Below the pieces are notes generated by a model. The model saw only the letters and a list, made by a program, of their open reading frames with translations. It did not search any database and had not been told where the DNA came from. Positions 2,517 to 58,855 of a DNA stretch of 64,000 bases are shown one piece after another. The translations under genes were made by a program, and so were the position numbers. Source of the stretch: a virus (lineage: Duplodnaviria; Heunggongvirae; Uroviricota; Caudoviricetes); the IMG/VR virus record IMGVR_UViG_651053022_000007, positions 28,836-92,835 of that record, one strand, 5' to 3'. How positions within the stretch are numbered: position 1 is the stretch's first letter; each line of letters starts with the position of its first letter.

Positions 2517-3539
2517 ATGTCTATCAATGCACTTAAGGCAGCGGCTACCGGTAACCAAGTTGCACATCATAATGAGAAACCAACAACTCTGGCCGGACTT
2601 CTGGCAGACCCAAAAATTAAAGCTCAGATGGCTTTGGCACTTCCAAAGCACATGACAGCAGACCGTCTGGCGCGCATAGCAACCACAGAGATCAGAAAGG
2701 TTCCAAAACTTGCATCATGCGACCAAGCCAGCTTCCTGGGGGCAATTATGCAATGTGCCCAATTGGGTCTTGAACCAGGCGGAGCTCTTGGACACGCTTA
2801 CCTGATACCGTTCGACAAACGCCAGAAAGTAAATGGAAGATGGGAAACCGTATCTACAGAAGCACAGCTGATTATCGGCTATCGCGGAATGATTGACCTT
2901 GCCCGCCGCTCTGGGCAGATCCTGAGTATCTCGGCTCGTACCGTACATACAAACGACAAATTCAGCTACTCATACGGCCTGGAAGAAACGCTCGAGCATT
3001 TACCTTGCGAAACAGGTGACCGCGGAGAATTAACGCACGTTTACGCCGTTGCACGACTGAAAGATGGCGGAGTCCAATTTGAAGTTATGAGCCGGGCAGA
3101 CGTTGAGAAAGTTCGTGCACTGAGCAAAGCCGGTAGCAGTGGCCCATGGGTTGATCACTTCGATGAGATGGCTAAAAAAACAGTAATTCGCCGACTGTTC
3201 AAATATCTTCCTGTTTCTATTGAAATGCAGAAGGCTGTTGTTATGGATGAGCGCGCTGAAGCTGGACTTAGCCAAGATAACGCAGCTGTTATCACTGGTG
3301 AATATTCCGTAGTTGACGATGAGCGTCAACACCTGTCGCCAATTTCAGATTCAGAACGAGAAGAAGCTCGAGAATATATCATCGCGATACTTAATAGCCT
3401 GGATCCATCTGCTGAAGATGCAAAAACGATGTTCAAGCGCGCTGAAAATGAAATTAACACCATGGCTGAAAAGCTCGGTGATGAATATCACCAAAAATTC
3501 ATGATGACGCTTAACGATATGCGTCCAGAATTCGAGTAA
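2517..3539 (+). CDS. recT: RecT-family single-strand annealing recombinase
   Basis: 340 aa; strong similarity to RecT (RIATTEIRKVP, GLEPG..LGHAYL.PF, LIIGYRGMIDLARRSGQI, GPW, AKKT.IRRLFKYLPVSIE). Confidence 0.85.
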   Translation: MSINALKAAATGNQVAHHNEKPTTLAGLLADPKIKAQMALALPKHMTADRLARIATTEIRKVPKLASCDQASFLGAIMQCAQLGLEPGGALGHAYLIPFDKRQKVNGRWETVSTEAQLIIGYRGMIDLARRSGQILSISARTVHTNDKFSYSYGLEETLEHLPCETGDRGELTHVYAVARLKDGGVQFEVMSRADVEKVRALSKAGSSGPWVDHFDEMAKKTVIRRLFKYLPVSIEMQKAVVMDERAEAGLSQDNAAVITGEYSVVDDERQHLSPISDSEREEAREYIIAILNSLDPSAEDAKTMFKRAENEINTMAEKLGDEYHQKFMMTLNDMRPEFE

Positions 3540-3588
3540 CCACCACCGCGGCGCCACGTGCGCCGCACTGCAACCAAGAGAGGTATTC

Positions 3589-3837
3589 ATGAAAGGTGCA
3601 TTAGGTAAGAAAGAACTCCTGGCGGTGGTGCCACTGTCATGGAGCACTATCGACCGTATGGAGCGCGCAGGGGAATTTCCTAAACGCTGGTATATCACCG
3701 ATAAACGCTGCGCATGGAACCGTGATGAAGTTGAGCGTTGGCTTGATGAACGTCAGGCAGCAAGCCCGGCAGAGTTCCAGGGTAAAAAGCCTCCTGTTCA
3801 GCAACGTGTATATCGTCCTGTGAGCAACGCGGCATGA
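3589..3837 (+). CDS. AlpA-family phage regulatory protein / excisionase-like
   Basis: 82 aa; small HTH protein with AlpA-like motif (LSWSTIDRMERAGEFPKRW). Confidence 0.6.
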   Translation: MKGALGKKELLAVVPLSWSTIDRMERAGEFPKRWYITDKRCAWNRDEVERWLDERQAASPAEFQGKKPPVQQRVYRPVSNAA

Positions 3838-3946
3838 GTGTGCTGCTAAGGCACTGGAGCAAATGGTCAGGATGGTACTTATTCCTGGCCTCTGTTTCAG
3901 CATGGCTTTATCTGCTGGCATTAATTTTCAGAGAGGGTTGGATTAA

Positions 3947-4246
3947 GTGAGAAAGTTAAGCCGACTTGAAAAATATCACATGAACAAGGTTTCAATGCGC
4001 AGCCCTTCAAAGGTTGTTGCCGTTACTCCTGCGGCGATAGAGATCGAAAAACGCGCGATTGAAAGAGAGAAAAAAGGGCAGTTCCGCATTGCCGCCCACC
4101 TTTGGCTTCAGTGTATGGATGTTGCTTCTGGTGATGTTGAACGTGCAAGGATCGCGATTCTCAGGGACCAATGTATCACAAAAGGTAACGGACTTCGCCG
4201 TGGCGACTATAGCGGCATAGGATGTTGTGGGGTGGTTTATGACTAA
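3947..4246 (+). CDS. small regulator, tentatively PerC-family-like
   Basis: 99-aa ORF; pattern EKKGQFRIAAHLW...ERARIAILRDQC resembles PerC/Pch small activators; recalled from memory only. Confidence 0.3.
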   Translation: MRKLSRLEKYHMNKVSMRSPSKVVAVTPAAIEIEKRAIEREKKGQFRIAAHLWLQCMDVASGDVERARIAILRDQCITKGNGLRRGDYSGIGCCGVVYD

Positions 4247-4889
4247 GAAATACACACTAATCTATGCAGATCCACCCTGGGCATACCGGGACAAAGCCAC
4301 AGATGGTAATCGCGGTGCCGGTTTTAAATATCCGGTTATGAGTGTGCTGGATATCTGCCGCCTTCCTGTGTGGGATTTGGCCGGTGAAAACTGTCTGTTG
4401 GCCATGTGGTGGGTGCCAACACAACCACTCGAAGCACTAAAAGTTGTTGAAGCCTGGGGATTTCGTCTGATGACGATGAAGGGCTTCACGTGGATAAAAT
4501 GTGGTAGTCGACAACCAGATAAACTGGTTATGGGTATGGGACACATGACTCGCGCCAATAGTGAAGATTGCCTGTTTGCGGTAAAGGGAAAACTACCTAC
4601 GCGCATTAATGCAGGGATCGTTCAGTCATTTACCGCACCGCGGCTTGAGCATTCAAGAAAGCCAGATATCGTTCGTGAAAAACTTGTGCAATTATTAGGC
4701 GATGTTTCTCGCATTGAACTGTTCGCCCGCCAGACGTCTCATGGCTTTGATGTTTGGGGTAATCAGTGCGAAGACCCGGCAGTGCAACTACACCCTGGAT
4801 ACGCGTTGGATATTGGCGGATTAACAAATGCATTCAGCAATGCTCCGCTGTCACCAATAGACAACCAGGGGCGGGAGCGTGCAGCATGA
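4239..4889 (+). CDS. MT-A70-family DNA N6-adenine methyltransferase
   Basis: ORF 4227..4889; YADPPWAY (DPPW) catalytic motif. Confidence 0.7.
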
Positions 4890-5545
4890 GCCTATATCAA
4901 CGCATCAATGGCGCTGACTGGTGCAATATCTTCGTCGTCGGCGATCTGCATGGGTGCTACACGCTGCTGATGAACGAACTCGACAAAGTTTCATTCGACC
5001 CGGCGCGCGATTTACTTATTTCCGTTGGTGACCTTGTTGACCGCGGCGCTGAAAACCTCGAATGCCTGGATTTGATTACTATGCCGTGGTTCCGAGCTGT
5101 TCGTGGCAACCATGAGCAGATGATGCTGGATGCACTGGTCAACGGCGGAAGTTTCGGACATTGGATGTCAAACGGCGGTGGATGGTGGCACCAACTTGAT
5201 TCTGAGCAGGATGTGCAAATCAAATACCTTCTGCCAAAGATTGCCAACCTCCCGATGATTATCGAACTGGTTACCGGCAATAAGAAGGTCGTCATCTGTC
5301 ACGCAGACTACCCGCACAACGAATACGCATTCGATAAGCAAGTACCAGAAGAAATGGTGATATGGAATCGTGAGCGGGTTAGCGACGCGCAGGACGGTAT
5401 TGTCTCGGAGATAACCGGTGCCGATTTGTTCATCTTCGGTCATACGCCAGCACATCACCCACTGGTGTATGCAAACCAGATGTACATCGACACCGGCGCA
5501 GTGTTCTGCGGAAATCTGACGCTTATCAAAGTCCAGGAAGGATAG
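4886..5545 (+). CDS. lambda-type Ser/Thr protein phosphatase (metallophosphoesterase)
   Basis: Start [12 protein letters not shown] inside ORF 4766..5545; motifs GDLHG, GDLVDRG, GNHE. Confidence 0.75.
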
Positions 5546-5547
5546 AA

Positions 5548-6804
5548 TTATTTATTACTGTCTTCCATCCACTTCTCAAACTTCGACGGGGAGAACGGAA
5601 TCAGATCCGTATGCTCCCCGTCAATCCAGGAATCAATCATATCTGCCCACTGCTGCAACATGTAGGCGCGCTGTCTGGCGTATTCCGCTTTGTTATATAC
5701 GGCGCGCACACCTTTCTGCTCATGTGCCAGAGCCTTTTCAATCCAGTCTGAAGGATAACCAGCCTCATGCAACAACGTACTGGCTGTACGGCGCATATCG
5801 TGTACGGTGAAGTCCTGAATATGCTCACCATCTTCATTTATTATTTTCACCGTTCTGTCGATCAGAGAGTTCAACGCGGCATTAGATAATGGCTTCCGGA
5901 AATTGTAACGACCAGGAACCAGGTATTCACTTCCACCAGCGCACATCTGCAACCCAACCAATATATCCTGTGCTTGTTTAGGCAGGTAAATAACGTGCGC
6001 CCGGCTTCCCTTCATGCGGCCTGAAGGAATTGTCCATGTCCATTTTTTAAAATCTATTTCATCCCACGTTGCATTGGTGAATTCGCCTTTACGAACCATA
6101 GTGATAAGCACCAGCTTTAAAGCCATTTTCATAGTGCCCATAGCACCAATGGCATCCAGCGTGCGGAAGAACAGACCAATTTCTTCTGGTGTCAGTGTTC
6201 GCTCTCGTGGTTTAAATATGGCGATAGACGAAGGTTTAATGTCAGCAGCAGGATTAAACAAACCATGACCACGGTCATTGGCGTGACGGTATACGCTGCT
6301 GATGATCTCCCTGGCCTGTACTGCTGTTGCCCGACCACCGCGTTCGACAATCCGGTCACACAAATCACGAACCATCGATGTGGTAATTTCAGCCATCATT
6401 TTGTTGCCAAGAACCGGAAGTATGTCACGGTCGATCACCGCCTGCTTCATTGCGCGGGTACTTTCAGCCAGGATGACGTGTTTCATATAACTGTCGGTAT
6501 GTACCGCAAACGTCTCGGCACCACGAATCTTTTTGATACCGTCACGTTTAGCCGCAGCCGGCGACTGGCCTGCTTTAAGCAGCTTCTTTGCAGCAATCAG
6601 TTCTTCTCGCGCTTCTGCCAGGCTGATACCGTCACGCCCATACTGCCCGATTACCAGTGTTTCGCGGCGACCGTTGATACGGTAGTCATAGCGAAACGAG
6701 ACCGTACCTGACGTAAGCACAGCTACATACAGCCCGTCACGATCGGAAACTTTGTACAGTTTGTCCTGTGGCTTGAGGTTTTTTAATTTTGTATCGGTAA
6801 GCAC
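5548..6804 (-). CDS. int: tyrosine integrase (P4-type, N-terminal arm-binding domain)
   Basis: 418 aa; MLTDTKLKNLKP...LYVAV N-terminus and C-terminal catalytic region (HDMRRT, Y near C-terminus). Confidence 0.85.
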   Translation of the reverse strand: MLTDTKLKNLKPQDKLYKVSDRDGLYVAVLTSGTVSFRYDYRINGRRETLVIGQYGRDGISLAEAREELIAAKKLLKAGQSPAAAKRDGIKKIRGAETFAVHTDSYMKHVILAESTRAMKQAVIDRDILPVLGNKMMAEITTSMVRDLCDRIVERGGRATAVQAREIISSVYRHANDRGHGLFNPAADIKPSSIAIFKPRERTLTPEEIGLFFRTLDAIGAMGTMKMALKLVLITMVRKGEFTNATWDEIDFKKWTWTIPSGRMKGSRAHVIYLPKQAQDILVGLQMCAGGSEYLVPGRYNFRKPLSNAALNSLIDRTVKIINEDGEHIQDFTVHDMRRTASTLLHEAGYPSDWIEKALAHEQKGVRAVYNKAEYARQRAYMLQQWADMIDSWIDGEHTDLIPFSPSKFEKWMEDSNK

Positions 6805-7121
6805 AATTCACCCGTATAGAAACCATTTTCATGACGGTATGAGAGTATACCTTTAAGGTAATACCGTCACCTGTACCGCCGAAAAATATGGTGTAGAGTG
6901 AATAGAAATGAATACGTAAAAACAAAAACCCTCTGCAAAAACAGAGGGTTGAGTTGGCATCTGAATAGGAATGATTTGCTATGAGTTAGCTGTTAATCAT
7001 TCCCACTCAATTATTTACGGATACCATAACCAATTGAGTGATAACATTTTTCCAAAACTCAATTTTCCTCGTACCGTTTTATATACCGTCACCGGAAATC
7101 AGTACCATGAAAAATGCCATG
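6805..7121. promoter_or_regulatory. integrase upstream region / candidate attP
   Basis: repeated ATACCGTCAC-like motifs, degenerate palindrome ATACC-TTTAA-GGTAA at 6847-6861, hairpin AACCCTCTG..CAGAGGGTT at 6925-6950; lies between int and the lysis cassette. Confidence 0.3.
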
Positions 7122-7604: not shown

Positions 7605-8230
7605 ACCGCCAGCACCTTACTGGCAGCGATGTACCGCGCGCGCCGGTCGTCGATGCCGTTCCGGCCACCATTGATAATCAGAGTTACACGTGCAATATCG
7701 CCGGTATACTTCATGCATCCTTTGCTGGCGAAGAACCACGCCGCGCTACGAGCCGCATATTCGTCCTGCGCCAGCAGTTCAGGGCTCTCCAGCAGGTCAA
7801 CCTTCAGACCGTTTCCGCAATCACGATAGTTATTCAAACCGGTAATCTGGATAAGTCCGCGCCCTCGGTAATTCCAGCCATCACCAGGGGCATTGTTCCC
7901 CATGCGTTTGCTGTATACCAGATTTGCGATCGCGCGCTGGCGCTCAAGTGGCAATGGTGGTTCACCAGCACGGCGCCCCAGTGCATTAGCCTGCCCCTGA
8001 GTGAGACGCCCAGCCCGAACGAAGTTAGCCAGTCCGCTGACACTGTAGTTGAAATTCTCCTGCAACCTGGTGAAGCCCCCAGACTCATGCCCGACTTGAG
8101 CAATAAACATTGCCTGATCTTCTGCTTTGCTGATACCAAACTCTTTCATCGCAGAAGTTATATGCGAGAACCAGCGTGCGGCCAGCGCCTCGCTAATACC
8201 AGCAGCTCGCTGGAATTGTTTAATCTCCAT
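7601..8230 (-). CDS. endolysin, glycoside hydrolase family 19 type
   Basis: 209 aa; motifs [10 protein letters not shown] and GRGLIQITG typical of GH19 phage lysozymes. Confidence 0.75.
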
Positions 8231-8528
8231 GTTTAGACCTCGTTATCTTGAAAATCTGAACGACGTTACCGCGAGTTTTAAGAACCGCAGCAAGCATGAC
8301 AGCGTTGATAATGACCTCAGATAAATCCACAGCCATTGGCGTGCGTAACCAGATTGCATAGGCGACTCGAACAGGAATACTGGCCGCAGCAACAATCAGG
8401 AAATAAGCAAGCCATCCTCCCCACCTTCGATGTTGAGAGCCGTTACGCCGGAATGTGACAACGCGAATTGCTATGCCAGTGCAAATAACTGCATTGGTGA
8501 TAAGCAAAAAAAACTCATGCGTTACCAT
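8220..8528 (-). CDS. membrane protein, putative holin/antiholin
   Basis: 102-aa hydrophobic ORF between holin-like gene and endolysin. Confidence 0.4.
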
Positions 8529-8991: not shown

Positions 8992-11454
8992 TCAATTCCC
9001 TGTTAATTGCAAAACTTGCTCTTCCAGCTTTTTAACCCTGCGTCTCATCATCGCAGATTCCAGAATCAGAGCCTCTTCATAACGGATACCGTAACATTCA
9101 CCAGCCTCGACGGCTTCGCGTACCAGAACCTTTGTCTGTATAAGTGGGTAAACTCCTGCAGAATGCTCTTCTTCCGTCACATCCCTGTATTCTGCCGGGG
9201 TCTCATTCCACTTGTCATAACAGATAAATGCCAGTCGTGACACATCTATGCCTTCATTCTGAAATACACTGATAACATGCTGCGCAACTGCACCAAAGTG
9301 CCATCTTGCTCCGTCTTTACCTTTCACTTCGATCCTGTCAAGGTACTGGTATGAAACCCATTCCACTCTTTCCCATGCGTCCAGTATTTTCTCATCAATA
9401 ACCTCTGGAGCAGTCTTGAAACGCGCATCGGACAGCACCGTAAACGCTGACTGGGTAAATCCCCCCGACCATGCACGACCAGCCAACCCAAGAGAATAAG
9501 TATTCGTTGTCGATGGTGTCATGGCTGAATCAGAAAACTGTATATATTCTGAATTTCCAGTAGATATTCGAATATTTCCATTTATTAGCGACATAGTGCC
9601 TTTAGTATTATCACTATTGAATAATTTCAATTGCGAACTTATACCGCCTCCCACAGCCAGAGATACATCGCCTTCAGCAAGCATTCTGAATTTATCTGCA
9701 GAAACAAGCGTCTGGTTAGCAAGGTTAAAATATTTAACCCACCATTCAAAACGCCCTGACATAGTCCCAACGTACTGACCAAGCGCAGGGACGTGAACAA
9801 CATTGCTATTTGTAGTGCCGTCTATACTGGAAATACCAGTCACCGCTGATGCAGAACTCAGAATATTATTTCTGTCACCCGGATGTTTAATTTCAACAAA
9901 GTTCCTGATACACCCTTCCTCGAAGGTAACCACGCCGGAAGAACTATACATGGGGAATATTGACGCATAATTACTGCGTGCAGCATCTAAGAAACGAATG
10001 GTTGTAGATGTCTGCAGATCTCCTGATTCATTTTTCCCATCACACCCAGTCATTAGAATATTACTGGCAATATTATTATTTCCCTGAACGGTGACTCCGT
10101 GCGCCTGCTTTGCGTCCGATTCAGAGTAATCAACCAGCACATTCGAAATCAGGTTACCAGTCCCCTTGCCAACAACTACTGCGGCGTATTTTGGGTTGTT
10201 AGCCATTACACTGCTAATGATATTATTCGTTGGGGCAGTTTCCGTCTCAGTTCCATTGTAAACAACGTGCTGACACTCTTCACCAATAACATTGCTGACA
10301 ATGTTATATTTTGCTGCTGTTTTAAGTTCCACTGCACCAAACTGAGGATAATTTCTGGCTATCACACCATCAATTAGCGTATTTTGCGATGAATCAAAAA
10401 GCACACAACCTGCTTTTTTATTATTTGCGAACCCTAAATACTCTCCTCTTATATCTCTAACAATGTAACCTGACGGAATACCATTATTCGGATAAGCGAT
10501 CAAGCTAAATCCTGTTCCTCGCGTATTTGTAAATCTGATATTTTTAACCGATACATCATGGCCACCTGAAAATGACACCTGGTGTCCCTGCACACTATCA
10601 TCTGATTTATTTCCCATAATTGTTAGCGTACTAAGCATGCCACCATCGGGCATGTTAAAAACCAGATGATTACCATCTCTGTCATACTGTTTTATCGTTC
10701 CCCCACCTGTTCCGTACAAGCCACAACGTGAAAGAGAAACTAAAGATGTATTGAATACCCCTTCCGGAACAAAAACACTGCTAAACGAATGTAATGATTT
10801 TGTAAAAGCATCCTTGTTATCATTTAAGATTCCATTTTGAGCTCCAAAATCCTTAATGCTGACACCATCACGCATCTTATCCTGGAACGTTCTGTATACC
10901 GCTCCAGAACCATACTGAATAAACCAACCAAAACCACCAATAACTCCGGCGATTGCAGCATCGACATAATTACGCATTGAGCGATTATTTACAGCGTCCT
11001 GCTCAAGTGATGGATCGGCAAGGTTAGATATTCTGTTTTGCTTTGCATCGTAATATTTTGCAAGCAAAGATGGTTTCATCAATGCACGTCTGAACCACCC
11101 AAAACATCGCTGGATCAGCATCGTCAGGTAGTCAAATGCATCCTCATGAACTTCGGGGAAAAATTTTCCCTGATTGCGAAGATCAGTCTCCTGCACCACA
11201 TCAAGCACACGCTCTATCGTGATTCGCCAGCCAGCAGCAAGCGGCGACGGAAGAACCACTGCACCGCCACTATAAGTTCCCGCCCCTGTTACCGTATAAC
11301 CAGCATCCAGCACTAGTTTTGTAACGTTACCGTTAAGGTCAGACACCTGAACAACCAGGTCGGATTTTTTGAAAATACGGAAGGTATACGGAAATGATGT
11401 CGTAACGCCGTTACCTGTGTATTCGTTGTGGTCAACTTCGGTTGAGACCGTCAT
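8992..11454 (-). CDS. tailspike / tail fibre with C-terminal S74 intramolecular chaperone domain
   Basis: 820 aa; conserved N-terminal head-binding-like segment (NEYTGNGVTTSFPYTF), long beta-rich central part, C-terminal chaperone-of-endosialidase-like domain (DARFKT...GARWHFGAVAQ). Confidence 0.8.
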   Translation of the reverse strand: MTVSTEVDHNEYTGNGVTTSFPYTFRIFKKSDLVVQVSDLNGNVTKLVLDAGYTVTGAGTYSGGAVVLPSPLAAGWRITIERVLDVVQETDLRNQGKFFPEVHEDAFDYLTMLIQRCFGWFRRALMKPSLLAKYYDAKQNRISNLADPSLEQDAVNNRSMRNYVDAAIAGVIGGFGWFIQYGSGAVYRTFQDKMRDGVSIKDFGAQNGILNDNKDAFTKSLHSFSSVFVPEGVFNTSLVSLSRCGLYGTGGGTIKQYDRDGNHLVFNMPDGGMLSTLTIMGNKSDDSVQGHQVSFSGGHDVSVKNIRFTNTRGTGFSLIAYPNNGIPSGYIVRDIRGEYLGFANNKKAGCVLFDSSQNTLIDGVIARNYPQFGAVELKTAAKYNIVSNVIGEECQHVVYNGTETETAPTNNIISSVMANNPKYAAVVVGKGTGNLISNVLVDYSESDAKQAHGVTVQGNNNIASNILMTGCDGKNESGDLQTSTTIRFLDAARSNYASIFPMYSSSGVVTFEEGCIRNFVEIKHPGDRNNILSSASAVTGISSIDGTTNSNVVHVPALGQYVGTMSGRFEWWVKYFNLANQTLVSADKFRMLAEGDVSLAVGGGISSQLKLFNSDNTKGTMSLINGNIRISTGNSEYIQFSDSAMTPSTTNTYSLGLAGRAWSGGFTQSAFTVLSDARFKTAPEVIDEKILDAWERVEWVSYQYLDRIEVKGKDGARWHFGAVAQHVISVFQNEGIDVSRLAFICYDKWNETPAEYRDVTEEEHSAGVYPLIQTKVLVREAVEAGECYGIRYEEALILESAMMRRRVKKLEEQVLQLTGN

Positions 11455-11558
11455 GTTAAATCTCCAGATAGTCGCAGCACCCGTTGCGCCGCATATCTGG
11501 TTATTCTATTACCCAAAAAACCATATATGGATAGAAAGACTGTGAATATGAATAGATA

Positions 11559-11573
11559 TTACCTTTCAGGTAA
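11559..11573. promoter_or_regulatory. operator-like palindrome TTACC-N5-GGTAA
   Basis: TTACCTTTCAGGTAA read directly. Confidence 0.45.
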
Positions 11574-11610
11574 TTTGCAAAACGTGCTGGATAGCAAACA
11601 AATTATTTGC

Positions 11611-11630
11611 TACTGTATAAATATACAGTT
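11611..11630. promoter_or_regulatory. LexA (SOS) box
   Basis: TACTGTATAAATATACAGTT = CTGT-N8-ACAG with AT-rich spacer, about 20 nt upstream of the 11651 start. Confidence 0.6.
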
Positions 11631-11650
11631 ATTGCATGGAGAAGATTAAG

Positions 11651-11908
11651 ATGCAGCAGTATCACTATCCACTGGAAGAGGGATTTACCGAAAGGATTCA
11701 CACGCCGGGAGGCGTCAGGTCACTGGTGGAGGGATCGCACTTGATGAAATTACTCCGGGATCTCGATAAGGATGGATTTAATGTCGATGGCCCACTTGCC
11801 GAACTGACTGCACTGATTAACTACGTCACCAGCTCACAGATGTCTATGCAGGATCTGCAAACACATCTCGACTATTGTGCCGAACAATTACGAAAACAAA
11901 CCAGATAA
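11651..11908 (+). CDS. small protein homologous to the C-terminal domain of Ant; putative SOS-controlled antirepressor-like factor
   Basis: ORF 11636..11908, likely start at MQQYHY (GGAG 8 nt upstream); about 40% identical by eye to the C-terminal 65 aa of 12224..12919. Confidence 0.45.
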   Translation: MQQYHYPLEEGFTERIHTPGGVRSLVEGSHLMKLLRDLDKDGFNVDGPLAELTALINYVTSSQMSMQDLQTHLDYCAEQLRKQTR

Positions 11909-12223
11909 GGTTTGCAATCACCAAATGGAGTGCTTATATTTACCTTTGCGGTAAATTTACAACGCACTCCTCTTGTGCCATAGTAATCGAGCACTGGCAA
12001 AATCCAGTGCCGGGATTGGCGTCCCGGATTACTAAAAGGCGCATTCACCGCGCAAGCGGTTTTTTTATGCGTATAGCACGGCCACATTCGTATTATGGTG
12101 GGCTGTGTGGGGGCACCGAAAGGTGCGCCGGGTCCTTTTAGCCGGTTACGCCAACCCTGCACAGTTCACCACCAACCGATTGGCGTCGGTAGTGGTGATT
12201 AACCAGACTAAAAGGTAACCACT

Positions 12224-12919
12224 ATGACAGCTACAAAAAGCACGTCCATTTTTTCTTTCGAATCCCAAGCCGATATACGGGTAATCGTCATTAATGGTGA
12301 GCCATGGTTTATCGCTTCAGATGTTTGTCGGGCTATAGGCATAGCAAACCATCGAGATGCTGTTCGAAAACTTGATGATGATGAGAAGGGCGTCGCTTCA
12401 ACCGACACCCCTGGCGGTGAGCAAGAATCGATCATCATCTCCGAGTCAGGCCTCTACACACTGATCCTCCGCTGCCGCGACGCAGTGACACCAGGCACTA
12501 TCCCCTACCGCTTTCGCAAATGGGTTACAGGTGATGTTCTTCCTCAGATCCGTCGCACCGGAAGTTACATTAAAAACTCGCTCCCGCAGGAAGAACGCAT
12601 AAAGATGGTTGCCGACCAGGTAGCCAGCGCCACAGCATCAGCAGTGATGCAGGCAATGAAGGTAGAGAACAAAACCTACAGCGCCCCACTGAAGCCCGGC
12701 TACCGCAGCCTGATTCATTCGCCGTCTGGTGTTCTTGGCCTGACGGAGAACTCACTGCTGATGAATCTGCTGAACCAGTTACAGGACGACGGGCATGACG
12801 TATCGGGCGCGGCGGCGGAGCTGACCACCATGTTCTGCTACATCGTCGGTGTGAGCAAATGCCTGCGTGATATCCAGACGCACGCGGAGTACATCAGCGA
12901 CAAAGCAGGGTTCTTCTGA
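12224..12919 (+). CDS. ant: Bro-N domain antirepressor (Ant)
   Basis: 231 aa; N-terminal Bro-N-like region (IRVIVINGEPWFIASDVCRAIGI...SGLYTLIL). Confidence 0.75.
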   Translation: MTATKSTSIFSFESQADIRVIVINGEPWFIASDVCRAIGIANHRDAVRKLDDDEKGVASTDTPGGEQESIIISESGLYTLILRCRDAVTPGTIPYRFRKWVTGDVLPQIRRTGSYIKNSLPQEERIKMVADQVASATASAVMQAMKVENKTYSAPLKPGYRSLIHSPSGVLGLTENSLLMNLLNQLQDDGHDVSGAAAELTTMFCYIVGVSKCLRDIQTHAEYISDKAGFF

Positions 12920-12985
12920 CGGGCGGCGGCACAGGGATGTGCCTTTAAAATAATCATTGGCGATGTGATGTAGATTCGCGTAATA

Positions 12986-28364: not shown

Positions 28365-28657
28365 TCCTGTTCACTGGCCTCTTTGGCCATCTTCAAATAC
28401 TGTTCAGGGCAATGCGCCATAACGCGCTGAAACAGTTCCAGCGCCAGATTGCGTTGCCCCTCATTAAATGCCATTGCCATAGCGTCCATCGGTGAGATAG
28501 CGGAAAACACACGGCCTTTCTCCAGCACCGACCAGACAACGCGACGCCCCTGTTCACTGCTCATGACAAAGCGAATGTCATCAATTTCACGCTGCGCCAT
28601 GTCACGTTGCTTACGGGCGTTTTCTTCTTTCAGTTGATCGTCTTCGTAATCAGTCAT
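28361..28657 (-). CDS. small structural-module protein
   Basis: 98-aa ORF overlapping portal stop. Confidence 0.35.
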   Translation of the reverse strand: MTDYEDDQLKEENARKQRDMAQREIDDIRFVMSSEQGRRVVWSVLEKGRVFSAISPMDAMAMAFNEGQRNLALELFQRVMAHCPEQYLKMAKEASEQE

Positions 28658-30333
28658 TGTGATTGCCCACCCTGACCACTAACTGCATTCGCCATAGCTG
28701 ACAAAACACTCGGATCCGAAGTTTTAGCTTCGCTTAGCGTCTTGGCGCCCTGTGCCGCCGCCATCCCCATCGCCATCATTTGTTGCTGCTGTTGCTGCTG
28801 TGCCCGTTGCTGGCGAGCCTGCTCAACCTGTTCCTGCGGAACAATGACGGTTGGAGACACTCCGGACATATCAGCGAATGCATCGATCGCCTGATCAACG
28901 TTGAGTTTGTCGAGAGCTTCTGGTTTCGCTTGCGCAAGTTGACCAATGAAGTTGACCGTAGACGCCAGACTGGACAGGCCGATAGACTTCTGCGCCTGAG
29001 CCATGACGGAAATGTATTCGACCTTCAGGGGCATACCTTCCATCACGTCTGGCGGTGGCGGCAGCATGTTTTTACGCACCATCATTGAGAAAGCGCGGTC
29101 AATGAGAGGATTAAGACATTCGTCGTTCAGACGCTCCAGAACCGGCCCCAACATCAGAAGTTTTTCTTCTTTCATTTCGATCACTGCTTCAACAGGCATC
29201 GAGCGGGTATTGATGTTCTGCAACATCATGAACAGATCGACAAAGTAGGCGCTGTTAATGATTTGACGAGTGTCCTGAATGTCTGCTACCAGATCTGCTG
29301 TACTGGGGTTAACCAGATAAGCAGGCCTGAAGCCATCCTGACCAGTAATCTGATCGATATACGTGATGTCGCCAGGAAGAAGGGAGGCGCGCTGATTCTT
29401 GAGGGAAGTCGGAGCAACCATCGGCGGATTGGTGGCTTTATCAATCAACTGCGACTTGCGCTTCTGGAGAAGTTGCAATGCCTTAACAGGTCCAAGCGCC
29501 AGCATACCCGGGCATGATGATCCATAAACATCTTCGCCATTAACTTCCCAGCGCGGAGCCATAATTGGAAACTCATCAAATCCGGACTCACGCAACAACT
29601 TGTCGTTATCGCCACCAACCTCGTAATAAACCGATTTGAATGGCTTGTTCTTGCTATCCAGCTTCGATGTATCGCGGTCAATGTTCGGGTAAACCGAATG
29701 CATCACGTCAATCCACTTCTCGTAGGTGCCGCTTTCCCACATGCTTTTTACGGATTCGCTGACGTTATTTAGCCCGAACTCCTGAACAAGCTGACGAACA
29801 GTCATAGAGAACTTGCGAAAACAGGTGTCCACACTGCCACGAGGTGAGTTAGCCAGGTAGTAACTGCCTATCGGGAATGGCATTGTGCGAATGATGTCCT
29901 CGTCATCCTCCAGCACCGCCATTGCACCAGTGCTGTATGTGCCGAGGCTTCCGTATAACTGCGGAAGAGACTGGTAGAGATTCGACTTATTGAACATATC
30001 GTTCATGCGGTTCTGCACCGCCTCGAGCCACAACTTAACAGGACCATAATCCATCATTTCAGGATCTGGCGTAGCCAGGCGAAACCACGGACGCGCGGGG
30101 CTTGTGATGCCTGACATCATGCCGCTGGCGAGAGTGCGCGCCGCCATAGTCCCGGTCGAATCAATAATGCGTGTATTGCGTCGATCGTTACGGTTGACCT
30201 CAGAAGTCAGAAAGCGGGAACCACGCGGGTTGATGTAATCACTCAACTCGCGCCAGTGCGGCTCAAACGACTGACGCTCGCTTTCAAGTTGTGCGAACTG
30301 TTTGTTCAATCGCTCTTTAGTTGTTTCCGCCAT
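28654..30333 (-). CDS. portal protein
   Basis: 559 aa; position upstream of scaffold and capsid; C-terminal Gln/Ala-rich tail. Confidence 0.7.
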   Translation of the reverse strand: MAETTKERLNKQFAQLESERQSFEPHWRELSDYINPRGSRFLTSEVNRNDRRNTRIIDSTGTMAARTLASGMMSGITSPARPWFRLATPDPEMMDYGPVKLWLEAVQNRMNDMFNKSNLYQSLPQLYGSLGTYSTGAMAVLEDDEDIIRTMPFPIGSYYLANSPRGSVDTCFRKFSMTVRQLVQEFGLNNVSESVKSMWESGTYEKWIDVMHSVYPNIDRDTSKLDSKNKPFKSVYYEVGGDNDKLLRESGFDEFPIMAPRWEVNGEDVYGSSCPGMLALGPVKALQLLQKRKSQLIDKATNPPMVAPTSLKNQRASLLPGDITYIDQITGQDGFRPAYLVNPSTADLVADIQDTRQIINSAYFVDLFMMLQNINTRSMPVEAVIEMKEEKLLMLGPVLERLNDECLNPLIDRAFSMMVRKNMLPPPPDVMEGMPLKVEYISVMAQAQKSIGLSSLASTVNFIGQLAQAKPEALDKLNVDQAIDAFADMSGVSPTVIVPQEQVEQARQQRAQQQQQQQMMAMGMAAAQGAKTLSEAKTSDPSVLSAMANAVSGQGGQSQ

Positions 30334-30622
30334 TTCAATGACTCCGGTTACTGACCAAGCAGCGTTTTACCGCTGGTATTAGCGGTTGATGTGTCGCCCT
30401 GAGAACCGGTAAGCAGCGTAGAACTACGACCAGCAGCAGCGCGACGGCGACGTGTTTCTTCGTCGCGGGCATCAACAACGGCGACATCCTGCTCCTGTGG
30501 TGCTGCCTGAACTTCTGGTGTTGCAGGCACTGATGGTGAGCTACCCATGCACATATCAATGACTCCGTACGCAATTAAATTATTACCAATTTAACCACAT
30601 ATGTTTTATTTATCGTAGAAGG

Positions 30623-30659
30623 TTGACATTTAACGCGCTAATTATTACCTTTCAGGTAA
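30623..30659 (+). promoter_or_regulatory. putative promoter with operator-like palindrome
   Basis: TTGACA at 30623-30628 and TTACC-TTTCA-GGTAA at 30645-30659. Confidence 0.4.
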
Positions 30660-30981
30660 CTAAAGAGTTCATTCCGGTTACTAACCTGACTGGCTTGTCG
30701 TTAAATTGAACAGGTGGAGTGAGCTTTTATTTTGAGCAGTACGGCGTATGGCACATGCGCCGATAGCGGTCTGGATACGTTTAAGGGGCACCCTCCCTTG
30801 CTCGGGCAAACGAACCAGGTAGCCGGAATGTGCAAGTCGAGCGGTTTTATTCCGCGCACGGGGATTCACCATCCCGGCGATTCGGTGTGACGCCTCGGAA
30901 GAGACGAGGGTACAACGATGAGAGCATTTATGGAGCCGCGACAAAGTGTGGCGCCTTAACAGGCTAAGTGCTCTCAGCGTT

Positions 30982-31058
30982 GTGGCATTAGCTCAGTTGG
31001 ACAGAGCAACCGCCTTCTAAGCGGTTGGTCGCAGGTTCGAATCCTGCATGCCACGCCA
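30982..31058 (+). tRNA. tRNA-Arg (anticodon TCT)
   Basis: cloverleaf folded by hand: acceptor GTGGCAT/ATGCCAC, D-arm GCTCAGTTGGACAGAGC, anticodon loop CTTCTAA, T-loop TTCGAAT, CCA end. Confidence 0.85.
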
Positions 31059-31256
31059 GAATCACGCCTAAGGACCGTGATGCCAGAAGTTCCAGGGGGT
31101 TGGCGGTGATGGTTTCCCTTGAAGGACTATCACCGCCCTTTTTACAGCAGGACGCCATTGCGATGACTTCATGCTGTAAACCAGTACAGCCACGGAAGGC
31201 ATAACTCATTGCTTCCAGTTCGCCCGGTTCGCCGGGCATTTTTTTAAGGTGAGATT

Positions 31257-31613
31257 ATGAACGACCAGCAAATCGAAAAAGAAATCGTTGAGAAAGGCAA
31301 AACCGCTCCGCGAGTTACGCCTCAATATATCGAAAGCATCATTCTTGAAGAGCATTTCTTTACTGCTTATGACGGCATTCGTGCTGCCAATATGGGCGTT
31401 GGCGATTCATGGACAGCGCATAAATCTACAGACCTCCTGACTTTCTGCGTATTGGTACTGAAGAATGGCTTCACCGTCACCGGAGAGAGTGCCTGTGCAA
31501 GTCCGGAAAATTTTGATGCAGAAATTGGTCGGAAGATTGCCCGGCAGAATGCTGTAAACAAAATCTGGATGCTCGAAGGTTACTTGCTGAAGCAGAAGTT
31601 AAGCGAGCAATAA
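31257..31613 (+). CDS. conserved phage protein of unknown function
   Basis: 118-aa ORF opposite in orientation to the flanking terminase and portal genes. Confidence 0.45.
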   Translation: MNDQQIEKEIVEKGKTAPRVTPQYIESIILEEHFFTAYDGIRAANMGVGDSWTAHKSTDLLTFCVLVLKNGFTVTGESACASPENFDAEIGRKIARQNAVNKIWMLEGYLLKQKLSEQ

Positions 31614-31703
31614 CACCGTGGCATGTCACAAACAGCAAGCCTATGAACTGGCTTTGTTTTATCCTCACCAGAAGATATCAACGACATTATCCCCACCAGC
31701 GAA

Positions 31704-33179
31704 TTAAGCATAAGGGTCATAATCCGTTATGGCCCTTCCCTGCTGGCTTTGCTGTCCTGGTATATTTATGCGTTTCGAGACCGGGAAAGCAAACGTCAGC
31801 AGTAGCGCATCGCCTTTACCAGGAGAACGCCCAAGACGCTCTTTGATATCTTCCTTCGGTTCGATAACGATTTTACCGTCCACACGAACTTTGTACTCTG
31901 CCGCAGACAGGTCGTCCGCTGTTTCCTGGTCATCCAGCATGCCGCCCAGCCTCAGCCATGTCTTGCATGAGTTGAACATCTCCCCACGCTTGTTGAGCAT
32001 CTGCGGGTCAGTAGACGCGCCACCGAACGGAACAAGTTGCCATGTGCGCCCCCAACCATCACCGATTGACTTCAGACCGGTACCGTAACCGAAGTCGATG
32101 AACACCGCGTCAGCCTGATACTGGTCTTCAAAGTCAGCGATACGCTTCGCCATAATCAGATCGTCGGTAGTCTTGTTGCCAGTCCACAGCACCTTACTGT
32201 GTAGCCCCTGCCGCAGGTATATCACCGCGTCATCAACGCCTGAATATGCCGGGTCAACACCGATTATCACCGGAGCATGCGCCACCTGCGCAGCGGTTAC
32301 CACCCGTTTCATTGCCTCATCAGTAAGACCGGTAGGGATAAACTGCAATTCAGATGCATCAGGGAATATGCCGCGCACACGGATTTTAACGAAGTCGCTG
32401 TCTTCCCCGTAGTCATCGACCCATTTCTGCAACTGCTGTTTGTTAGTGCCTTCCACCGTCCGGCTGTCAATCTGCGCAGTTTTCCAGCGGTGTTTATATT
32501 TGCGGAAACATTCGCGGAAACGCCCGGTGTTACGTGTAGGGTTTCCGAACGCCACCCAGATAATCTCAGTGTCTTCGTCCGTAAGCGCACCCTCAGCAAC
32601 TTCCCACACCAGATCCGCAATGTTCGACGCTTCATCGAATACCACGATGATGCGTTTGCGCTCGTTGTGTAGTCCGGCGAATGCCTCAGTGTTGTGCTCA
32701 GACCAGGGGATTGCGTCAGCTCGCCACCGCTTGTCGTGCCCAGGATCATTGCTGTACATCGCGGTAGCGGTACAGGTAAACCAGTCTTTCGTGATAGCAA
32801 GGTTCGACCACTTGATAATTTCCGGCCAGGTCTTCGTTCGTAGCTGGTTGTCGGTGTTGGCGGTCACCACGACCTTACAATCCTCGCAAGTGGACATGCC
32901 CCAGTTGATCAGCATTGAGATGAATGCGGATTTACCAATACCGTGACCAGAAGCACGTGCCAGCATAAGCGGCTGATAGCGCGTCTCTGGATTCTGCAGG
33001 TGATCACGTATCTCTCGGAACGCATCAGCCTGCCACTGACGTGGACCGGTGGCATGTGCCAGTTCAGTCCCCTCTTCCCCCCACGGGAACGCATAGATGG
33101 CATAGCCAAGCGGATCGTGAGTGAACCCTGCAATATCCTCGATCAACTGCTCTTCAGGAGATAACGCTGTATCTGTCAC
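31704..33179 (-). CDS. terminase large subunit
   Basis: 491 aa; ATPase Walker A-like GHGIGKS, nuclease-domain acidic residues. Confidence 0.85.
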   Translation of the reverse strand: MTDTALSPEEQLIEDIAGFTHDPLGYAIYAFPWGEEGTELAHATGPRQWQADAFREIRDHLQNPETRYQPLMLARASGHGIGKSAFISMLINWGMSTCEDCKVVVTANTDNQLRTKTWPEIIKWSNLAITKDWFTCTATAMYSNDPGHDKRWRADAIPWSEHNTEAFAGLHNERKRIIVVFDEASNIADLVWEVAEGALTDEDTEIIWVAFGNPTRNTGRFRECFRKYKHRWKTAQIDSRTVEGTNKQQLQKWVDDYGEDSDFVKIRVRGIFPDASELQFIPTGLTDEAMKRVVTAAQVAHAPVIIGVDPAYSGVDDAVIYLRQGLHSKVLWTGNKTTDDLIMAKRIADFEDQYQADAVFIDFGYGTGLKSIGDGWGRTWQLVPFGGASTDPQMLNKRGEMFNSCKTWLRLGGMLDDQETADDLSAAEYKVRVDGKIVIEPKEDIKERLGRSPGKGDALLLTFAFPVSKRINIPGQQSQQGRAITDYDPYA

Positions 33180-33772
33180 TGATTACCATCCTGACGTTCT
33201 TTGAGTCGCTTCCTGGCTGCTGCTATGCGATCAGCAATTGTCACATTCACATTAACATCCAGGCGTTCTTTGAATGCGTTGACGTCGACGTGCTTACCAA
33301 TCAGTTCGAGGTTCTTCACCTTGTCAGGCCATTTAATTTTTTTGAGGATTGTCTCTATCGAATCCTCGTTCATGTTCATGATGGTCGATGACAGATCAAA
33401 GCCACTAAGCGTAGTGCGCCAGATTTTCGGCCACTCACGGATTGGTTTAAGGCTCCCATCGTCGTTGAGGATGTCGATCACGTCCATCTGGTCGATCTCC
33501 ACCAGGCGCATGAGAACGTAATCAGCACTGACGCGCATTCGTTTGTTGCGCTCCTCCATCAACTCGGCAATCCGTTTTTGAATGCGTTCATCGCGCATCA
33601 TGACACTGGCTTTAACTGCCGCTGTATTTGGAGAGAATCCTGCGTTAATCGCTGCCTGAGTCTGGTTTTCAGGCGTTTTGATGTATGACTGGCAATAAGC
33701 CTCCTGCATTGCTGTTAGTGGCTTAAATTGCGTTGATTTGCGTTTATAGGTTTTAGGTTCAGCAGGCATCAT
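33176..33772 (-). CDS. terminase small subunit
   Basis: ORF 33176..33850 with probable internal start MMPAEPK; overlaps terminase large start. Confidence 0.55.
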   Translation of the reverse strand: MMPAEPKTYKRKSTQFKPLTAMQEAYCQSYIKTPENQTQAAINAGFSPNTAAVKASVMMRDERIQKRIAELMEERNKRMRVSADYVLMRLVEIDQMDVIDILNDDGSLKPIREWPKIWRTTLSGFDLSSTIMNMNEDSIETILKKIKWPDKVKNLELIGKHVDVNAFKERLDVNVNVTIADRIAAARKRLKERQDGNQ

Positions 33773-33890
33773 AACCACCGTGGTAATAGTTACCGTTGTG
33801 GTAATAGTACCATGCAAAATAAAGCCGCCATAGTTGGCGGCAGTATTCAAAACCCATCAAATTCATCATGCATAATCTACTCGTGACATG

Positions 33891-37784: not shown

Positions 37785-37861
<77 letters not shown>

Positions 37862-37903
37862 AATTTGCACCGCAAATTTGAAGAGGTTTTAACTACATGT
37901 TAT

Positions 37904-37979
37904 GGGGCTATAGCTCAGCTGGGAGAGCGCCTGCTTTGCACGCAGGAGGTCTGCGGTTCGATCCCGCATAGCTCCACCA
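37904..37979 (+). tRNA. tRNA-Ala (anticodon TGC)
   Basis: GGGGCTATAGCTCAGCTGGGAGAGCGCCTGCTTTGCACGCAGGAGGTCTGCGGTTCGATCCCGCATAGCTCCACCA. Confidence 0.85.
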
Positions 37980-57854: not shown

Positions 57855-58134
57855 GGAGTTTACTCACATCTGACAAAATCAATATAAACAGCCCCTCCGG
57901 AGAGGGGCTGGAGAGTGGCGCTATGTGCCATTGCATGGTGCCGGGTGCCTCCCGGTGAATTCAGTACCAGCACCTGAATCCGCGATTATCCCATATACCT
58001 ACTCGCTGATTGCCCCTCCGCACAGGGGGATTCACCATGCCAGTTTCTTTTAACAAACTCCCCGCAAACCAGACAACAATCAACCGCCTGAATTGTGAAG
58101 TATTTAAAAATTTCTCCCGCTAACTGATACCCGG

Positions 58135-58221
58135 CTAACAGTCTGGCGTTTTCTTTTTCAGCAACGGGAAAGCAACAACCACCACACCCGCCACCAGCAC
58201 ACCGTCAGCCAGCACTGACAT
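58135..58221 (-). CDS. 28-aa hydrophobic peptide, start overlapping upstream stop (TAATG)
   Basis: MSVLADGVLVAGVVVVAFPLLKKKTPDC. Confidence 0.2.
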   Translation of the reverse strand: MSVLADGVLVAGVVVVAFPLLKKKTPDC

Positions 58222-58568
58222 TATCCGGCTGCCCGAAGTTCATCCATACCACAGGTCCTGGCTATTCTGTTGTACTCCTGAACAAGAGTAAATAATTCTG
58301 AATTAGCCACCATGAACTCATCGCAAACCCTCTGTATAGCATCACTATTCAGAATAATAACGTCTCTTCCCGAAAGACGATCAGGAGTACAGAACAAAAC
58401 TGTCAAACGGCTGAAGGCCTTTGCTCGTGCTGCATTGACTATATCAATACGCTGCCTAAGGATGAAACACCCCGACGCCTCATCAATATTCACTCTACCC
58501 ACACCATATGAATGATAAATATTTAATGCTGAAAAAACCATTAGACCGTATAACAAACACTCAATCAA
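58221..58568 (-). CDS. hypothetical protein, AT-rich cargo downstream of tRNA pair
   Basis: 115-aa ORF in low-GC DNA. Confidence 0.35.
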   Translation of the reverse strand: MIECLLYGLMVFSALNIYHSYGVGRVNIDEASGCFILRQRIDIVNAARAKAFSRLTVLFCTPDRLSGRDVIILNSDAIQRVCDEFMVANSELFTLVQEYNRIARTCGMDELRAAG

Positions 58569-58681
58569 TACTTAACAGAACTTTTATTTTTGACAAACAT
58601 AAAATATTTTCAACAATATCCTGAGCCAGGTATATTTCAGTATAAGGCTCTGCCGGAAGGAATCTGGAAGAATGAATATAG

Positions 58682-58755
58682 CGCGCTGTACTGGATTCGA
58701 ACCAGTGACCGATTGCTTAGAAGGCAATTGCTCTGTCCGGCTGAGCTAACAACGC
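58682..58755 (-). tRNA. tRNA-Arg (anticodon TCT), no encoded CCA
   Basis: reverse complement GCGTTGTTAGCTCAGCCGGACAGAGCAATTGCCTTCTAAGCAATCGGTCACTGGTTCGAATCCAGTACAGCGCG folds as cloverleaf. Confidence 0.7.
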
Positions 58756-58855
58756 TGAATACCGATAATGGACCGCCATCGGGGACCCGCCCCCGCACCA
58801 ACAACCCTGTTATCGTGTCGTCTGCTCTTCCTGATAAGCTAATGGCGGTTTGTGA

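Follow-up and report, generated by a model that had tools for sequence, protein, structure and literature searches.

The 64,000-nucleotide stretch of viral DNA analyzed here (IMG/VR record IMGVR_UViG_651053022_000007, positions 28,836 to 92,835; "the window", whose own numbering is used unless a contig is named) carries, between a putative early promoter and a tRNA-Arg(UCU) gene, a conserved sense-strand RNA of ~190-250 nt. This RNA, referred to here as the element, belongs to a previously unnamed, widespread RNA family that is absent from Rfam and from RefSeq annotation, and the main interest of the locus is that an abundant, unannotated and covariation-supported RNA family is common to P1, lambdoid and podoviral temperate phages. 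Its neighbors (the tRNA, two intrinsic terminators T1 and T2, an operator motif and an open reading frame (ORF) of the Acb4 family) are ordinary members of their kinds. In the order promoter/operator, pseudoknotted RNA of ~250 nt, tRNA-Arg(UCU), two terminators and Acb4-family gene, the block very probably constitutes an early, repressor-controlled counter-defense cassette of a phiV10/epsilon15-like prophage.

A widespread RNA family without annotation

When the leader ahead of the tRNA gene was compared with Rfam 15, no match was obtained on the plus strand of 30660-30981 in an 801-nt scan reporting hits to E = 10, and a 251-nt scan with lax filters likewise gave zero matches to E = 10. A preliminary description of this DNA, made from its letters alone, had called the leader (30690-30975) structured, non-coding and GC-rich, and had taken the combined lack of an RNA family match and of conserved structure as grounds for abandoning the idea. 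This criterion was badly framed, as the leader has no Rfam match yet possesses a strongly covarying, conserved structure; it is indeed non-coding, whereas its GC content is only mildly raised (0.549 vs 0.518 for the prophage). The parts of the element are as follows.

30726-30928, plus strand: main body of the conserved structured RNA (P1-P5), the only place in the window that covariance model R1 recognizes (160 bits, E = 1e-46)
30854-30912, plus strand: minimal core of ~60 nt comprising P4, the pseudoknot, the conserved stretch GGCGAUUCGGUGUGAC and P5 (78 bits with covariance model R2)
30912-30983, plus strand: 3' module, a duplex of ACAACGAUGAGAGCAUU with AGUGCUCUCAGCGUUGU that closes a variable interior of 38 nt (minimum free energy -35.6 kcal/mol)

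The family was found in more than 200 viral contigs. The main body includes the 19-mer GGUAGCCGGAAUGUGCAAG (30818-30836), and the exact 19-mer GGTAGCCGGAATGTGCAAG is present in at least 120 IMG/VR contigs, from which 111 distinct core sequences were obtained. A scan keyed on P5 added further contigs, and as the 19-mer was unchanged in 107 of the 132 sequences of that set, its conservation is no artifact of retrieval. Among complete E. coli genomes, 1831 of 5426 (34%) contain the 192-nt core at a total of 2462 places, 548 of them on plasmids that are presumed to be mostly P1-like phage-plasmids. No annotation lay under the match in any of 12 E. coli records sampled across the ranking. A species-level genome scan confined the family to Enterobacteriaceae by covariance model; pattern matches outside this group had no model match and are ascribed to chance, and the one model match outside it, on a 1.7-kb contig of a "Bacillota" metagenome-assembled genome, is probably misbinned.

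Distant blastn matches covered ~30741-30985 at 70-83% identity to unannotated DNA in unrelated phages, including lambdoids (cdtI, mEp460, 2H10, Ayreon, and Stx2c- and Stx2a-converting phages), P7, P1 and D6, and podoviruses of Klebsiella, Enterobacter and Salmonella. Three unrelated phage groups share the element: phiV10/epsilon15-like podoviruses, SfV/mEp460-like lambdoids without an N gene, and P1/P7. A full-text literature search for the invariant 19-mer or its sub-strings found no paper, and papers on ZX5, on P1 transcriptomics and on mEp phages do not mention the element.

The element is single-copy at 79 of 80 loci. The exception (contig L025, 3980-4973, minus strand) has two tandem copies (181 and 142 bits) separated by a 166-codon ORF on the opposite strand, the second with a mutated 19-mer, and the element may here mark a recombination joint between mosaic phages. 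A diverged second copy was sought with R1 and R2 near the pR/cro-cII side and near the other tRNA-Arg gene of the window, and neither model matched. A weak match of the minimal-core model R2 at 7950-7985 (16.6 bits, E = 0.015) is probably due to chance.

Covariation supports a pseudoknotted fold

The following helices of the main body were modeled.

30742-30762, plus strand: P1 hairpin, 9 base pairs with a GCA loop
30766-30823, plus strand: P2 helix, with 30766-30767 and 30770-30773 paired with 30816-30819 and 30822-30823 and enclosing an insertion of variable length
30861-30864 with 30872-30875, plus strand: P4 hairpin (covariation model)
30867-30870 with 30884-30887, plus strand: pseudoknot between CACC of the P4 loop and GGUG (covariation model)
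30893-30897 with 30905-30909, plus strand: P5 hairpin CCUCG-GAAGAGA-CGAGG (covariation model)

An alignment of 45 representatives less than 95% identical to each other (A4) was used to test the model of four helices plus pseudoknot. Standard pairs filled 97.2% of the cells, compared with 88.8% in shuffled alignments, and 12 of 28 pairs had changed on both sides (shuffle mean 7.4). The covariation score reached 0.260, as against 0.115 for shuffles (0 of 500 reached the observed value) and at most 0.071 for slid controls. An independently retrieved alignment of 59 nt spanning P4, the pseudoknot and P5 (A5) gave 95.5% paired cells, changes on both sides in 9 of 13 pairs and a score of 0.335 vs 0.112, again reached by none of 500 shuffles; both alignments hold related sequences, and the shuffle statistics are not true probabilities. 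Single pairs illustrate these changes. The fifth pair of P1 is G-C in 21 sequences and A-U in 24, two P2 pairs switch from C-G (34) to U-A (11) and from G-C (43) to A-U (2) with 100% of cells paired, and a pseudoknot pair switches from C-G to A-U, turning CACC/GGUG into AACC/GGUU. The insertion within P2 forms a three-way junction in the window copy, and its apical part varies in length. G-U pairs are tolerated on the plus strand only, which identifies the functional strand as that of the tRNA gene.

A long-range pairing of the 5' strand of P1 with 30824-30838 (which contains the invariant AUGUGC) was considered as an alternative to P1. It is 98-100% compatible with the alignment, and across the 45 sequences it is nearly invariant, the few changes being wobbles on one side without compensation. 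This pairing was set aside as compatible but uninformative, and the truncated variants described below lack it.

A minimal core with optional flanking modules

Natural variants exist in which a strong promoter of their own is fused directly upstream of the core. Three of them lack P1-P2 (L161, L195 and L218) and one lacks P1-P3 (L180), and all four keep P4, the pseudoknot, P5 and the 3' module. P1 and P7 copies keep P1-P5 and have no 3' module. The common denominator of all these forms is therefore the ~60-nt core at 30854-30912. In epsilon15, only P1 and half of P2 are retained (42 bits); the deletion took P3-P5, the tRNA and T1, with T2 and the ORF remaining.

In 18 of the 19 flank types distinguished, the 3' module is closed by a stem of 15-19 bp with compensatory changes; in the window, the last two pairs of this stem use the first two bases of the tRNA. 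The interiors that the stem closes belong to about nine unrelated sequence types of 37-66 nt. An antisense or "immunity" role for this variable interior was considered and rejected, as the longest complementarities were 9-14 nt and inconsistent between phages; a recurrent 11-12-mer complementarity in the portal gene is near chance level for 64 kb. The heptamer GUUGUGG is conserved even where no tRNA follows the element. The spacer of mEp460 was evaluated as a possible tRNA remnant and folds no better than shuffles (z = -0.06). On L180, a tRNA-like gene lies past the 3' module of the truncated element (8176-8300), with acceptor strands GUGGUU/AACCAC, D and T arms, a CUCGUAU anticodon loop and an insertion of ~60 nt ahead of the T arm.

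The element stands at the start of early operons in unrelated phages

The element is always sense and promoter-proximal in early operons; the context frequencies given here derive from fragmentary viral contigs. In ~60 contigs of SfV/mEp460-type lambdoids, an S24 repressor gene and its terminator are followed by operators and promoter (oL/pL) and, ~40 nt on, by the element. Next come a strong T1-like terminator, another long hairpin followed by a U tract, and the first early-left ORF. This second lambdoid "terminator" is a conserved hairpin of ~85 nt (GAGCAUCACC...GGUGYUCU plus U tract; L002 2930-3015, L180 8385-8470) that may itself be an independent structured element. A further ~37 contigs are Uetakevirus relatives arranged as in the window, and in P1/P7 the element lies between trnI and ban. 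What follows downstream varies (tRNA, terminators, a 120-nt spacer, ban or rdgC), as do the distances. A tRNA adjoins the element at 44 of 128 loci: at 27 it is a tRNA-Arg(UCU) at the 3' end that starts in the last pairs of the duplex, and at 17, which are P1-like, the P1 hairpin is closely preceded by the end of a tRNA with anticodon CAT. The remaining 84 have no adjacent tRNA.

No N gene is annotated in mEp460, and neither is an N-like arginine-rich antiterminator; the first pL ORF has no arginine-rich motif, although small unannotated ORFs were not searched exhaustively. Casjens and colleagues have raised the idea that put-like RNA antitermination may operate in an N-less relative whose immunity resembles that of mEp460 (PMC12315714).

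A probable early counter-defense cassette

The prophage type in the window is phiV10/epsilon15-like (Uetakevirus) of E. coli. Over 1.6 kb around the element, the chromosomes of several E. coli isolates from humans match the window at 100% identity, and phiV10, ZX5, TL-2011b, PAS61 and other phages match it at 91-98%. The block and its flanks contain the following features.

28654-30333, minus strand: portal gene, beyond the 68-aa ORF
30348-30554, minus strand: 68-aa ORF flanking the plus-strand block
30578-30587, plus strand: direct repeat, copy 1 AATTATTACC (repeat search)
30623-30651, plus strand: putative early promoter, -35 TTGACA (30623-30628), 17-nt spacer and -10 TACCTT (30646-30651), read from the sequence
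30640-30649, plus strand: direct repeat, copy 2, running into the operator
30644-30660, no strand: predicted operator, a 17-bp palindrome ATTACC-TTTCA-GGTAAC over the -10 and the start site
30652-30689, plus strand: 5' leader hairpin, arms 30652-30663 and 30678-30689 (inverted repeat of 12 nt, 83% complementary)
30982-31058, plus strand: tRNA-Arg(UCU) with encoded CCA (ARAGORN, anticodon tct at position 35; Rfam RF00005, 73.3 bits vs threshold 29; also in RefSeq)
31102-31145, plus strand: intrinsic terminator T1, a 14-bp stem followed by CUUUUUAC (terminator scan; dG about -22 kcal/mol)
31222-31245, plus strand: intrinsic terminator T2, GCCCGG-UUCG-CCGGGC followed by U7 (terminator scan; dG -11.5 kcal/mol)
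31257-31613, plus strand: 118-aa Acb4-family ORF ("Gp49 family"; full-length Pfam PF13876, 118.6 bits vs threshold 27, E = 1.7e-34)
31704-33179, minus strand: terminase gene flanking the plus-strand block
301-363, 1061-1137, 6847, 11327-11954, 12986, 14120 and 33772-33804: dispersed copies of TTACC-N5-GGTAA

In RefSeq, the minus-strand neighbors are annotated as terminase small and large subunits, the 68-aa ORF and portal, and the plus-strand features inside the block as tRNA-Arg and a "Gp49 family protein". The preliminary description had drawn a plus-strand block within minus-strand packaging genes, and each of its elements, including the tRNA and the 118-aa conserved phage ORF, was recovered here at the coordinates it gave, with terminase on one side and the 68-aa ORF and portal on the other. 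Its view of the block as an unusual insertion did not hold, since an equivalent plus-strand block is found here across the genus (phiV10, ZX5, SPN1S, PAT1, Tyrion and Klebsiella relatives, with the deleted form in epsilon15). In Salmonella phages (SPN1S, SPC32H, PAT1), Enterobacter phage Tyrion and the Klebsiella relatives, the block is in the same place and the cargo ORFs differ.

The TTGACA-17-TACCTT arrangement is identical in phage epsilon15. A consensus promoter scanner made no call at 30623-30651, where the -10 is weak (3/6 consensus matches), and promoter activity is inferred here from the sequence, with a predicted start site at ~30655-30660. The palindrome TTACCTTTCAGGTAA (30645-30659) overlaps the -10, and its motif TTACC-N5-GGTAA occurs at 15 sites in the window with at most one mismatch, compared with 1.07 expected and with 0 of 100 shuffles reaching 15. 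Mapping of the window onto the annotated prophage of strain 4/0 placed two sites (301 and 349) between the divergent genes for a cro-like protein and the helix-turn-helix repressor (the latter at 419-1003), two (1061 and 1123) just past the repressor gene and ahead of early recombination genes, and sites 11559 and 11940 with the one-mismatch site 11327 upstream of an isrK/C4-antirepressor operon. The copies at 33772-33804 lie near the start of the small terminase gene. In the GenBank record of epsilon15, the equivalent 17-mer, of the same sequence class, is annotated as "protein_bind repressor" (2931-2947), and the window has what characterizes an epsilon15-type operator, a 17-bp palindrome ATTACC-N5-GGTAAT that recurs at the immunity region and at other early promoters. 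The repressor-like control suggested earlier for this promoter is thus well founded as a prediction, and the dispersed sites suggest that one repressor may control several scattered promoters, as C1 does in P1. The direct-repeat pattern occurs 8 times in the window with at most one mismatch (3.4 expected), and the 5' leader hairpin is conserved in close relatives only. Also marked in the epsilon15 record (L237) are a late-strand "RNaseIII mRNA processing" site (2720-2819), which covers mostly the 5' leader upstream of the element remnant and overlaps the first nucleotides of the remnant, and an IHF site that overlaps the operator.

The tRNA had been proposed to supply a rare codon. AGA and AGG occur at 5.9 and 2.9 per 1000 codons in the prophage genes vs 0 in three adjacent host genes, which is consistent with a supply role. 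A second, different tRNA-Arg(TCT), also noted before, is located at 58681-58755 on the minus strand and differs at ~19 of 75 positions. It is part of a cluster (57880-58931, minus strand) of tRNA(CAT) and tRNA-Arg(TCT) followed by STnc100 (132 bits). STnc100 and the element both adjoin tRNA-Arg(UCU) genes, and the conserved STnc100 stretch AUGGUGAAUCCCC is the exact complement of 13 nt of the P4 region (~30860-30872), probably by chance.

Downstream of the tRNA, T1 shares its ends (GGCGGU / ACCGC plus a CUUUUUAC-type U tract) with the lambdoid terminator located 3' of the element; the middle of the stem does not align. T2 directly abuts the Shine-Dalgarno sequence of the ORF, and in the Klebsiella, Tyrion, PAT1 and epsilon15 phages this junction is found ahead of differing cargo ORFs. 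No promoter-like site was detected between T1 and the ORF in a scan of the window. The ORF itself is a predicted cyclic-dinucleotide sponge directed against the cyclic-oligonucleotide-based antiphage signaling system (CBASS). Its nearest PDB match, 9e4w "anti-CBASS 4 (Acb4)", is weak (E = 0.006), and similarity to the SPO1 Acb4 protein amounts to only ~20 bits; PF13876 is the Acb4 sponge family, of which 8 of 8 homologs tested bound 3'3'-cyclic GMP-AMP (3'3'-cGAMP) (bioRxiv 10.1101/2024.12.30.630793). In a Klebsiella phage, the ORF in the corresponding slot (L005 3011-3532) has a Tad2-like (anti-Thoeris) domain (E = 4e-26), whereas no known relatives were found for the other two cargo types. 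The slot behind T2 thus looks like an exchangeable position for anti-defense cargo, and the Acb4 family membership of the window ORF together with the Tad2-like gene in the equivalent slot argues for an early counter-defense cassette instead of an odd insertion.

Possible functions of the element

From the observed parts, their order, conservation, structure and strand, we infer an effect of the RNA on termination, as well as processing of the transcript. The reading that we tentatively favor, with somewhat less than even confidence, is that the element is a cis-acting nascent RNA of processive antitermination, which lets RNA polymerase pass the terminators ahead of the ORF. Once the repressor leaves the operator, the nascent RNA would fold, with the P4/pseudoknot/P5 core as its essential part, and the folded RNA, alone or with host Nus-type factors, would render RNA polymerase termination-resistant. 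Only transcription begun at this promoter would then pass the tRNA, T1 and T2 and reach the sponge gene, and in N-less lambdoids the module at the nutL/putL site would open the early-left operon. RNase P at the 5' end of the tRNA, and probably RNase III in the long 3' duplex, would release the RNA and the tRNA. Antitermination is favored because the element is sense and promoter-proximal, lacks a fixed expression platform, occupies the nutL/putL position with a put-sized core, and because tandem terminators block the only route to the downstream genes in two unrelated contexts. As T2 abuts the Shine-Dalgarno sequence of whichever cargo ORF follows, expression of the cargo would need read-through, and the absence of a fixed platform fits an effect on the polymerase rather than on a single ribosome-binding site.

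Several observations weigh against antitermination. Unlike putL and putR, the element is single in each phage, with no copy near pR. Epsilon15 keeps T2 and the ORF after losing P3-P5, the tRNA and T1; it can thus dispense with the RNA, and T2 need not occur together with the element. P1/P7 and rdgC-type contigs have no terminator 3' of the element. Moreover, a terminator-enrichment statistic downstream of the element was not above background: the first terminator finder was unspecific, with more matches in the reverse-strand control, and against the background of the second, 1.4 per kb, its finding of at least one terminator in 88 of 113 loci is uninformative. The argument consequently relies on the individual strong terminators. 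Finally, the flanking tRNAs, the RNase III-like duplex and the co-travelling T1 fit a released RNA equally well.

Such a released RNA is the strongest rival, which we consider unlikely but still a serious contender: a stable, processed, trans-acting phage RNA that would act on a host or defense component (e.g., as decoy, sponge or inhibitor) as a counter-defense product. Release could occur at the adjacent tRNA through RNase P or, in P1, through tRNA 3' processing; other routes would be RNase III cleavage of the 3' duplex and termination at T1. The exact abutment of a tRNA at either end of the element, the near-perfect 15-19 bp closing duplex maintained by covariation and the passage of T1 with the element between phage types would all be expected of such an RNA. 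The same is true of its accessory, mosaic distribution over three phage lineages and its loss in epsilon15, of the neighboring anti-defense cargo (Acb4 here, Tad2-like in Klebsiella) and of a complex fold with long conserved unpaired stretches, as in partner-binding RNAs. Conversely, the element is a plain 5' untranslated region in the terminator-free P1/P7 and rdgC-type contigs, natural variants without more than half of the RNA persist, and the variable interior has no consistent complementarity to nearby sequences.

A sensing or binding leader, in the form of a riboswitch-like aptamer or an mRNA operator that tunes the early operon, perhaps through a switch between P1 and the long-range pairing, seems improbable. 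Its attraction lies in two mutually exclusive pairings that are each ~100% compatible over 45 sequences, in the 5' leader position in every context and in a compact H-type pseudoknot core with invariant joining nucleotides, which resembles small aptamers and protein-binding leader pseudoknots. However, there is no conserved expression platform, a whole tRNA separates the RNA from the terminators in the window, variants without P1 persist though unable to form the switch, and the alternative pairing shows no compensatory change. The riboswitch identity was rejected on similar grounds, the downstream neighbor being variable and the terminators beginning 120-190 nt past the core.

Even less credence is given to the element as a mere leader for tRNA processing or folding, or as a recombination-prone shared module, with no further function. 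The start of the tRNA inside the last two pairs of the closing stem would suit this explanation, the persistence of GUUGUGG without a tRNA might be a remnant, and tandem copies around an opposite-strand gene in L025 are as expected of a recombination hotspot. Against it stand the 84 of 128 loci without an adjacent tRNA, the purifying selection and compensatory changes in five helices across copies of 70-98% identity in unrelated phages, which are hard to account for without a function, and the mEp460 spacer, which has no tRNA-remnant fold. That the element is not an RNA at all, but a small protein-coding gene or a DNA-level site, is highly improbable: GenBank places hypothetical proteins over it in mEp460 (mEp460_037, opposite strand) and Ayreon, and the window has an 87-codon minus-strand ORF, yet stops interrupt all six frames in 11 of the 45 representatives, no frame on either strand is consistently open, indels of 1, 2 and 5 nt (not multiples of three) are common, and covariation with G-U pairs is restricted to the plus strand.

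Considering antitermination and the released RNA together, the element may, with a confidence that stays on the doubtful side, represent a new class of phage effector RNA, either a put-unrelated, RNA-only or Nus-assisted antiterminator of N-less lambdoids, or an RNA counter-defense factor beside a tRNA and a sponge. If so, an effector RNA class present in a third of E. coli genomes and in the laboratory phage P1 has never been annotated. Naming the family would improve the annotation of thousands of genomes, and the element is accessible in P1 and in inducible prophages. Its position at the start of the early operon in N-less lambdoids makes it a concrete candidate for passing early terminators, a question raised in PMC12315714. 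The rare-codon tRNA and Acb4 sponge gene of the cassette, and the Tad2-like gene of its Klebsiella phage counterpart, suggest a modular locus for early counter-defense.

Comparison with known phage RNAs

HK022 put (putL/putR), a cis-acting RNA that binds RNA polymerase and suppresses pausing and termination, is among the closest known parallels and shows that an RNA of this size can confer antitermination. The element is likewise sense, structured, directly downstream of an early repressor-controlled promoter in N-less lambdoids and followed by terminators, and its core of ~60 nt with two hairpins compares with the ~70 nt and two stem-loops of put RNA, whose action is independent of transcript tethering (PMC9378689). 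In contrast to put, which occurs twice (after pL and pR), the element is single; it contains a pseudoknot, usually has an additional 5' domain of ~110 nt and a long 3' duplex, and is also found outside lambdoids, in P1 and podoviruses. Homology to put was rejected: on the HK022 immunity region R1 scored at most 5.4 bits with filters off, R2 gave no match, and HK022 was absent from the blastn matches. The element may therefore work like put as a functional analogy, not as a member of that family.

Similarity to lambda nut sites, whose boxA and boxB act with N and Nus factors, is positional, as the element lies where nutL would, and extends to the P5 loop, which starts with GAAGA as in lambda nutL boxB. 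In the 3' duplex strand, UGCUCU(U/C) resembles boxA, and the GUUGUGG that follows is reminiscent of boxC of the rrn leader antiterminator (boxB-boxA-boxC). Nevertheless, the P5 loop is the 7-mer GAAGAGA and not a GNRA-like pentaloop, and P1-type copies wholly lack the 3' module. Identity with a nut site, which has an GCUCUUUA-like single-stranded boxA, was rejected since UGCUCUY is the 3' strand of the covarying 15-19 bp duplex, and the boxA/boxC reading was dropped because this stretch is paired.

RNAs of the C4 clan (P1/P7 c4, P4 CI, isrK) are structured phage RNAs cut from the 5' part of operon transcripts, and tRNA-type processing would be implied here too. The element is three times larger, no Rfam model matches it, and no consistent complementary target sites were found nearby, so C4/isrK identity was rejected. 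T4 species 1 and 2 RNAs are function-unassigned RNAs beside phage tRNA genes that are released by tRNA processing. The element, by contrast, is confined to temperate Enterobacteriaceae phages, and no tRNA adjoins two thirds of its copies.

Other features of the window

A genuine isrK and C4 antisense RNA pair is present elsewhere in the window (11991-12176; Rfam 77.9 and 77.7 bits). It lies behind the same operator motif as the block and immediately ahead of a BRO-N antirepressor gene, and gives this podovirus prophage an antisense immunity module of the P1/P22-like immI type.

Beyond 35488 the window contains unrelated DNA with naRNA4, two sok copies and lambdoid late-region RNAs. At 37785-37979, tRNA-Ile(GAT) and tRNA-Ala(TGC) are spaced as in an rRNA operon spacer, although no rRNA match was found across the window. 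The window and the integrated prophage of strain 4/0 are not collinear: the corresponding segments are 1-7011, 10359-12954 and 13643-35488, and the window runs from a cro/repressor-integrase-att segment through ~3.3 kb of other sequence to the tail fiber through terminase genes. Such an order suggests a circular permutation, as in a phage form, a tandem or a composite.

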